DNA of 64,000 bases from Neophaeotheca triangularis. Its lineage: Eukaryota. Both the position numbers and the translations under genes were made by a program. This document shows, in pieces, positions 3,990 to 6,470 of the stretch (the stretch's first letter is position 1; the number at the start of each line of letters is the position of its first letter). The notes under the pieces are model-generated. The model worked only from the letters and a program-made list of their open reading frames with translations, had not been told where the DNA came from and searched no databases. The DNA is taken from positions 62,001 to 126,000 of the forward strand of contig BAAIJX010000023.1 of NCBI GenBank assembly GCA_054600435.1. Direction: 5' to 3'.

Positions 3990-4596
3990 CTTGGGTATTG
4001 TTGTCGTGTTTCAACCGATATAGCACTGGCCTTGAATGGATAATTTCGTGTCCGCTTATGTCTTCAGTGCGTGGTTCTTTTTACATGCGGGTTGCACAGA
4101 TGTTCAACGGAGGTTGAAGGAGAGGAGAGGAGAGGAAGCACTATATCTGATACACACTGAGTCGCGTGGGCTGTGTTGTCTGAGCGTGCGTGAACGAAAA
4201 TGTAGCAACTCGATGTCTGCTGTTGTTCCTCAGAGATTGCTGTTGAAATTGTCTACCTAGCTACTACTTGTTAGGTATCGTCTGGGAACGCAGTCTTGTA
4301 TATAGGTACAGTAGTCTTTGGGAGTGCCCCCTATATATCCACGCATTCAGCCTGTTCGGCCCTGGCACCCCCTATGCGCCAAGAAATATGTCCCTCCCTC
4401 CCGCTCGGCTGGTCCCGAAGGGAGCTATCGCTGCCTCGTAGCGAGCTCCAACTTGTACCTCGCCCGCAGCCTCGCTCCCTCATTTGCGCGCATACACGTC
4501 GATATCTTCGACTTGTTCATCCTCACCCACTTTCACATAACAACACCTCGACCCGCGACCTCGAGCATCCTTAGCCCTTTTCCCGCAAGCGCAGTC

Positions 4597-6098
4597 ATGG
4601 ACCAGTCGCTTGACGACATTATTGGGGAGAGCCGCCATGTGAGTTACCAGTAAACATACCAAGGCCTTACGCACTTCACTGACAATGTATCTTACAGCAA
4701 CGTCCCAGAGGCGGCGGCGGCGGCGGTGGCCGTGGCAGGAATGGAGGAGACCGTCGTGCTCCGGCTCCGGCTCCGGCCCCACGCGCAGAGAGACCTCCCC
4801 CACGCGGCCCACGCGGTCCCCCAGCTGCCCACTACGCCAGAGACAGCTACATTGGAGAGGAGAAGAAAAAGGGAAGTCGCTCACCTCACTGCCATTCGCA
4901 TGCTGCATCTGCTAATCCTCCAGCAGGTACTTGATATTTCCCTTCCCCCACATGCGGCGACGAACGATCCCCGATCGATTAGCAATGCCCACGACCCGTG
5001 ACCGGCTGCGCCAAAGCGAATCACCTACTGACCGTGGACCGTCCGCCGTCAGGCATGGGACGATAGCAGGATCATGAAAGAGTATGCTCTCGGCAATCGC
5101 GTTTTTGGCGAGTGCCCCGTATTTACACGCAATGGCAGTGACTGGAAGCACGACCGATACTTCGACCCCCACCCTGCTCGCGAAGACAAGTACGACCGCT
5201 ACGAAGATACGCACCCTGTGCACCAGCTGTACGTCACCTTGCGCCCGTGGGAGAAAAAGTGGTGTTTGCTGACATTTGGTACCATTAGCGGCGAGTATGG
5301 AGTCAGGATCAGAGTGGAAAACCTACACTACAACATCACCACAGACGAGCTCTATGTGAGTACTGAAAGTTTTTACTAGACGATAAGTGAGGTTTCAGGC
5401 TAATCCACCATGTATAGGAACTTTTCACCCGCATCGGACCTATCACCGAGTCGACCATTGTGTTCGACAGGTCGAATCGCTCTACTGGCATCGCATTTGT
5501 CACCTACCCCGATCCTCTCGACGCCGAGCGTGCTCTTCGCGACTACAACGGTGCGAAGGCTGGCGGCCAGGTCATTCACCTTCGCGAAGTTCCATTGGCA
5601 CCACCCCCGAGGTCCGGCCCCAGAGTCGCCGAAGCTCCAAAGTCCCTTATGGATCGCATCGAGCGACCCGGCCGTAGCTTGGAAGATCGCATCGACCCGC
5701 CCGGTGGACGAGCTCGGGGTCGCGGTGACAGAAGAGGTAGAAGCCGCAGCGCTAGCCCACGCAGGATGAACAGGCCGGCTCCTGAGGGCGTAGATCGCTA
5801 CGTCCCTGGTGGTGATCGCGACGATCGCCGTGCTTCGCGCTCTCCCATCAGGCGTTCCCGTGGGCCGCGCGAGCAAGGTGGAAGAGGCGGACGTGGAGGG
5901 CGTGGACGTGGAGAGCGTAGAGAAGAAGGTCGTCCCAAGAGGGAGGACAGGCCTAAGAAGTCGGCCGCGGATCTTGATGCTGAAATGGACGACTACTTTG
6001 GTGGAGGATCCGGCGCAAAGACCCAGCAGAGCAACGGTGCGGCGCAAGCTCAGCCTCAGCCTGCCGCTGGGGACGACGACATTGATATGGCTTTGTAA
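4597..6098 (+). CDS. Aly/REF (Yra1/THOC4-family) RRM mRNA-export adaptor, ~360 aa. Exons 4597-4638, 4698-4871, 5053-5081, 5139-5228, 5289-5355, 5418-6098 (second donor non-canonical)
   Basis: N-terminal MDQSLDDII and C-terminal DLDAEMDDYF UAP56-binding-type motifs, RGG-rich arms, WKHDRY motif, RRM (IRVENLHY...STGIAFVTY). The joined exons total 1083 nt and are in frame. Confidence 0.85.
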
Positions 6099-6470
6099 TG
6101 GCAGGCAGAGTGAATCCTTGGCAGGCGTGGGAGGTGGAGAATCCATCTTTCCGGGGCAGGACTATGCAAAGGTTATTGGGTGGGTGGGCAGGTTGCATCA
6201 TAACTGGGATGATGCTGAGAAGTTCACAATGGCGAGCATAAAGTGAGCTAAAGGGTGTAAACCTGGCAACACTGCACGTACCTGTATCACCAAACCTAGG
6301 AAAGGCGGAGGATGGCAGCATCGGACAATTAATTCCATTCACAGAGCGAGTATTAAATAACCCATAAGCGCTCGCTATGACCCAAAAGAGAGTACACGCT
6401 TAGAACGCTCATCCAACAACGAAAATACGAAAAGATCGTTTCCCACCCCAGTCACGGTTCCAATGTGATC

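Follow-up and report, generated by a model that had tools for sequence, protein, structure and literature searches.

The window analysed here is a stretch of 64,000 nucleotides from Neophaeotheca triangularis (GenBank assembly GCA_054600435.1, contig BAAIJX010000023.1, positions 62,001 to 126,000 of the forward strand), and all positions below are counted within it. By its sequence features, the gene at 4597-6098 on the plus strand is that of an Aly/REF (Yra1-like) mRNA-export adaptor. Members of this family are recognized by a central RRM and by short terminal motifs flanking RG-rich regions, and all of these were found. On the public protein of this gene, P0003, the RRM was matched by Pfam RRM_1 with an E value of 1.4e-18, and FoP_duplication (Pfam) scored 30.5 bits, above the cut-off of 24.6. 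The N-terminal motif reads MDQSLDDII, and a motif of the same type is present in 22 homologs; the C-terminal motif, DLDAEMDDYF, follows the RG-rich region. The source records of the homologs call them THO complex subunit 4 or Aly/REF, and a W.HD motif was found in 52 of 122 proteins, counting the homologs together with the window's own translations. No second copy from N. triangularis was present among the 120 homologs listed, and no Rfam family matched the region 4400-6300 at E values up to 1.

The gene model lies entirely on the plus strand, and its spliced product is open throughout its 360 codons. Exon 1 (4597-4638) carries the ATG and the SLDDII-type motif in 14 codons and is followed by a GT..AG intron of 59 nt (4639-4697), the join from 4638 to 4698 being present in RNA contigs of two metatranscriptome runs (X3 record 12 and X10 record 1). 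Exon 2 (4698-4871), covered by contigs from X3, X10 and X11, is RG/PR-rich and ends in phase 0 with EEKKK after 58 codons. The next intron (4872-5052) is 181 nt long and has the ends GG and AG, with AAG|GGAAGT at the donor and the CAG at 5050-5052 as acceptor, as joined in X10 and X11. Inside it lies an internal unit (4911-4932) made of a branch-like GCTAAT (4911-4916), a CAG ending at 4926 and then GTACTT (4927-4932); a C/T-rich tract is located just 3' of the internal GT (4937-4949). The branch-like ACTGAC at 5027-5032, about 20 nt upstream of the productive acceptor, is what we take to be the branch point on the basis of the fungal branch consensus. A mini-exon of only 29 nt (5053-5081), encoding AWDDSRIMK plus 2 nt, is flanked by an RNA join at either end in X10 and X11 and contains an alternative acceptor CAG (5067-5069). 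It is followed by a GT..AG intron of 57 nt (5082-5138; joins in X10 and X11), an exon with the motif DWKHDRY (5139-5228) seen in the RNA contigs, a GT..AG intron of 60 nt (5229-5288; join in X11 record 7), an exon in which the RRM starts (5289-5355), likewise seen in the RNA contigs, a GT..AG intron of 62 nt (5356-5417; the join from 5355 to 5418 is in X3 record 13) and the last exon (5418-6098), which encodes the remaining RRM, the RG-rich region and DLDAEMDDYF up to the stop codon.

The introns at 5082-5138 and 5229-5288 are multiples of three, in frame and stop-free, and their retention would give a longer in-frame protein. The sole identical public protein, P0003, is a 320-aa 'hypothetical protein' of N. 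triangularis whose model starts at the internal ATG at 5074 and translates both of these introns. Gene predictors fail at this gene; that the annotation pipeline left the N-terminal exons unlinked is expected if a non-canonical site is needed to reach the rest of the gene.

The GG donor in RNA and DNA

An earlier note on this DNA, made from the letters alone, had described an exon 2 read in frame to AAG (4869-4871) and followed by GGAAGT (4872-4877), and further downstream GCTAAT, two CAGs at 4923 and 4926, GTACTT, ACTGAC and the CAG at 5052. All of these were found in their places, and the readings of phase and stop built upon them hold as well: donor use of the GT at 4876 or at 4927 gives phase 1, unspliced read-through ends at a TGA (4932-4934), and translation after the acceptors at 4923 or 4926 used alone runs into the stop that had been claimed. 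From this it had been predicted that a GG donor at 4872 serves the in-frame mRNA by a junction from 4871 to 5053.

The region 4450-6250 was compared with a single DNA run (X2) and with RNA from three runs of marine metatranscriptomes; X3 and X11 come from one sample and X10 from another, all within one study. The predicted junction was present in contigs of both RNA samples (X10 record 5 and X11 record 7), and every piece of these contigs matches the window with 0 mismatches. Both are also spliced from 5081 to 5139, and the X11 contig from 5228 to 5289. The raw join lies at 4869 to 5051 and 3 nt fit on either side, giving four placements that skip AG..TC, GG..CA, GG..AG or GA..GG; an AG acceptor is found only with 4872-5052, and the choice of the GG..AG placement rests on requiring an AG end. 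The RNA derives from environmental strains and not from the sequenced strain, its own intron letters being unseen, and the stretch 4877-4998, which has no cover in the RNA runs, carries no evidential weight. Depths of the RNA contigs are low (2-4.8) and unusable for isoform ratios. With these features of the data taken into account, splicing of 4872-5052 as a GG-AG intron is highly probable.

Only with the join from 4871 to 5053 are the N-terminal motif and the RG region read in one frame with the RRM, the DW.HDR motif and the conserved mini-exon. The broader claim that frame rescue is possible only from the donor at 4871 was too strong, as 24 GT/GC..AG combinations are formally open in a scripted search, mostly through poor GC sites or via the AG at 5079-5080; none of them, however, was found in the RNA contigs. 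The mini-exon is entered at 5053 as had been proposed, but it ends at 5081, and the 57-nt intron behind it, documented by the X10 and X11 joins, had been overlooked because it is in frame and stop-free and was therefore read through. A 3-nt CAG microexon had been suggested as an indirect route into the same frame; its extra CAG was in none of the three RNA contigs reaching the donor, a number too small to speak against rare forms. U2-type and U12-type introns are told apart by their consensus motifs, and the signals of the present intron are U2-like, with G.AAGT after AAG, ACTGAC about 20 nt before the AG and no ATCCTT-type donor. From these motifs we infer that 4872-5052 is an intron of the U2 type.

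A second splice form, which breaks the frame, was found at the same donor. In X3 record 12, exon 2 extends to 4872 and is followed by 20 letters corresponding to 5071-5081 plus 5139-5147. This loose end, together with the shared AGG, points to a join from 4871 to 5070, in which the GG donor is used with the acceptor CAG at 5067-5069. Compared with the productive form, 17 nt more are removed, the frame is shifted and a TGA is reached after 4 codons; the stop is placed at the junction of the mini-exon with the next exon, and two more exon junctions lie downstream of it. A frame-breaking or 'poison' acceptor had been foreseen correctly in kind, but the one observed is at 5069 and not at 4923 or 4926. 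RNA using these two was not present among the three contigs reaching the donor, which are too few to speak against rare forms.

The G at 4873 was checked in independent DNA. A contig from X2, a separate sample of this organism, spans 4450-5231 at a k-mer depth of about 114 and differs from the window by 6 substitutions and one 6-nt insertion, none of them at 4872 or 4873. In X1, the possible source sample, the sampled words were present at 1.00. An assembly error at 4873 is very unlikely in view of both results. At 5202-5310 the X2 sequence is resolved into two contigs (depths 56.8 and 44.2) that are 6 substitutions and 1 inserted base apart inside the 60-nt intron, so that the X2 sample must hold two alleles or copies; the region of the GG donor is a single full-depth contig in which the alleles are merged. 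The GGC repeat at 4709-4727, which encodes a glycine run, is polymorphic in length: X2 carries 6 additional nucleotides behind 4709, and an indel sets the RNA contigs of X3 and X10 apart from the window, 6 nt of the repeat being absent from them at 4722.

A composite intron in orthologous loci

Eighty metagenome loci were fetched from the alignment of 23 homologs, and the W.HD motif was present in 76 of them. Removal of 15 duplicates, and of 12 loci that lacked introns or had too little upstream sequence, left 49 distinct loci, of which 48 entered the scripted tables; the remaining one, L046, was left out for lack of flank. The exon ending in ...RDGV(R/K)K AAG is followed by a GT donor in 48/48 loci, and L046 has GT too. 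Conservation of AAG|GGAAGT, which the earlier note had named as a check, was thus not borne out. The orthologous donor is GT throughout, an outcome that the same note had set down as refuting its reading; in combination with the RNA evidence it shows that the GG is specific to this lineage and does not refute its use. The AAGT found at +3 to +6 of the donor in the window occurs in only one of the 48 orthologs (L008), and its presence in the window is consistent with compensation for the change at +2.

The productive frame agrees with that of the orthologs, which read ...RDGVRK | (R)RDE..N.D. | DW.HDR[FY]. Three further sequences, L045, L069 and L077, are intron-free from the ATG to W.HD and have the same two exons joined as predicted; they are probably assembled transcripts.

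The internal build of the intron is shared as well. In 48/48 loci a branch-like motif and an AG abutting a GT lie within the intron, followed by a C/T-rich tract with a CC.C or CCTCC-like core, which corresponds to the tract at 4937-4949 of the window. The first unit of this composite intron, with its branch-like motif and AG end, measures 47-132 nt (median 59). Further downstream lie another branch and AG, a mini-exon (29-53 nt in 44 orthologous loci) and a short intron with a median of 56 nt, the composite intron as a whole measuring 165-301 nt (median 244, n=44). It can be seen, for example, at L001:2360-2572 and L002:2404-2635. Flanking peptides match Trichophyton proteins in L057 and resemble a Penicillium protein in L074, and from these affinities the composite build extends beyond the Dothideomycetes.

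Retention of the second unit alone leads to a stop in 45/45 sequences and retention of the first unit alone in 38/45, the window being included in both counts. The internal GT is nearly without donor consensus, having a purine at +3 in 9/48 loci, an A at +4 in 1/48 and a G at +5 in 5/48. Its junction AG|GT could be a recursive or an alternative splice site, or else an element bound by a protein. That the first donor is kept markedly weak in the orthologs was considered and rejected, as it differs just modestly from the donor of the next intron (G at +5 in 35/48 against 40/44, purine at +3 in 36/48 against 34/44).

Readings of the GG intron

The reading that we prefer combines a genuine GG-AG intron of the U2 type with inefficient splicing that caps the level of the protein, and to this joint statement we give a probability of about 0.6. 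The GG would have arisen by a T-to-G change at +2, and it may be tolerated because all the other donor positions (AAG|G.AAGT) fit the consensus for pairing with U1. Productive splicing would be made inefficient by the weak donor in combination with the composite build and with competition from the frame-breaking acceptor: with a G at +2 and a rival acceptor 17 nt downstream, the yield of productive mRNA should be lower. A low splicing yield would in turn cap the level of the export adaptor, possibly with feedback as in yeast YRA1. The regulatory part taken separately, that is throttling or feedback through the GG intron, is suggested by analogy and is tentative, with a chance that falls somewhat short of even.

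A wider proposal would place the control in the composite intron itself. The Aly/REF composite intron of Pezizomycotina would then be a conserved splicing switch, and the GG donor a tuned extreme variant of it and not an accident. The parts of such a switch would be the internal branch-CAG|GT, the CCTCC-like element and the mini-exon of 29-53 nt just downstream, and by using the internal site recursively or alternatively, perhaps with feedback, it would set the output of export adaptor. This proposal is doubtful. An RNA intermediate of recursive use of the internal AG|GT was not found among the three contigs reaching the donor.

Pairing of the donor with the C/T-rich tract in a stem, by which the donor would be hidden, was also tried and rejected. 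The minimum free energy fold of 4846-4965 does pair both elements, with z-scores of 0.04 and 0.93 against shuffled sequences. In 49 sequences the donor-tract duplex had an energy of -10.88 with the locus's own tract, -11.05 with the tracts of other loci (Wilcoxon p 0.54) and -11.70 with shuffled tracts.

The alternative that survives best accepts the GG-AG intron as real and regards it as neutral and tolerated, the form joined at 5070 being splicing noise, without any feedback. It would agree with the occurrence of GG in this lineage alone (0/48 orthologous loci), with the consensus at all remaining donor positions, and with the low frequency of GG-AG introns in the curated annotation of a fungus (20 of about 92,000, as tabulated in PMC11590231). 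Set against these points is the depth at which the frame-shifted form was assembled, 4.39 (X3) compared with 4.8 (X11) for the productive form in the same sample, a similar low value, although contig depth is a poor measure. Moreover, the GG site is located inside a conserved and unusually long composite intron, and the yeast orthologs are regulated by poor splicing according to the accounts in PMC2911113 and PMC2864733. On balance we hold neutrality to be possible but on the unlikely side.

The spliced RNA could also have come from related strains with a GT donor, in which case the GG allele would not be productively spliced and would represent a hypomorph or a broken copy. The strains that supplied the RNA do differ from the sequenced one, as seen from the 6-nt indel at 4722, and the intron sequence of the RNA source was unseen. 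However, GG is present in two DNA samples, one of which, X2, has diverged more from the window than have the RNA contigs. The X2 sequence shows GG in a single full-depth contig, though alleles are separated elsewhere in that sample. The remainder of the gene is intact, and a broken sole copy of an export adaptor is unlikely given that a second copy was missing from the 120 homologs listed. This account is therefore very improbable.

Finally, that nested canonical splicing of a stwintron-like kind circumvents the GG, or that the G at 4873 is an error of assembly, can be set aside almost completely: a branch/CAG|GT unit does lie inside 4872-5052 and stwintrons have been described in Pezizomycotina, but an internal intron creating a GT would have to begin at 4873 (GA) or 4872 (GG), excision of 4876-4926 merely restores GGAAGT, no GT/GC..AG excision puts a T after G4872 so that no such chain yields the observed junction, and the assembly error is contradicted by X2 at about 114x and by X1 with all sampled words.

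Relation to known introns

The closest known case to our preferred reading, an inefficiently spliced GG-AG intron that caps the level of the adaptor, is yeast YRA1. The homologs of this gene in hemiascomycetes are described as inefficiently spliced and as carrying a long intron whose branch point is deviant, and the YRA1 pre-mRNA as undergoing autoregulated export and decay in Saccharomyces and NMD in Yarrowia (PMC2911113, PMC2864733). The yeast gene and the present one belong to the same Aly/REF family, and in each a single intron stands out by its unusual length and by a core splice signal that is deviant; the YRA1-type trait of a suboptimal core signal in one intron is represented here by the GG donor. 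In yeast, however, the deviant signal is the branch point, whereas in N. triangularis it is the donor dinucleotide, and feedback has been shown in yeast while in N. triangularis it is proposed by analogy. The yeast intron is located inside the part coding for the RRM, whereas the N. triangularis intron precedes the RRM. It is plausible that splicing control here is independent of that of yeast YRA1, as had been supposed. The locus would thus join two known kinds, a non-canonical intron of the U2 type and the control of an export adaptor by poor splicing, the latter a reasonable idea by analogy. If it is true, this would suggest a longer history and a greater variety of splicing-based dosage control in export adaptors than the yeast case indicates.

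In the more common GC-AG introns, the change at +2 is offset by a near-perfect consensus at the other donor positions. The GG donor is like these in carrying a single change at +2 within an otherwise strong consensus, and unlike them in that the base is G, which is far rarer than C. In the curated annotation of Ganoderma lingzhi, Table 1 of PMC11590231 gives GG-AG for 20 of about 92,000 introns (0.022%), and GC for 1.85% in the same annotation. A testis-specific GG-AG case is described for human CPSF3, and GA-AG sites for the FGFR genes, where the GA site needs a GT 6 nt upstream (PMC4176328). Few splice types are as rare as GG-AG introns, and artefacts are suspected behind many of the cases reported; rare non-GT donor sites are prone to misannotation, as stated in PMC4176328 and PMC11590231.

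The sites in FGFR, CPSF3 and Ganoderma share with the present one an AG acceptor and a U2-like consensus around a non-GT donor. They differ from it in that the sole productive form of a core housekeeping-type gene depends on the GG here, and in that, as judged from the orthologs, the GG arose recently at a site where GT is conserved. The GT needed by the FGFR site is upstream of it, and the GT nearest to the GG donor lies 4 nt downstream. Taken together, the conserved frame, the RNA junctions, the second genome sample and the 48 orthologs with GT make the locus a clean natural test of a G at +2.

The arrangement of an internal branch and an AG abutting a GT is also the layout of a recursive site with a zero-length exon. 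A stwintron is defined by an internal intron interrupting a splice signal of the outer intron, and 4872-5052 falls outside this definition, as its internal unit interrupts no donor, branch or acceptor of the outer intron. A search of the literature, covering abstracts and text passages, found neither the splicing of Aly/REF genes in Pezizomycotina nor this composite intron described.

Among the orthologous loci, L026 carries a GC donor (GCAAGT, L026:924) at the intron that follows the mini-exon, and the corresponding donor is GT in the other 43 scored loci.
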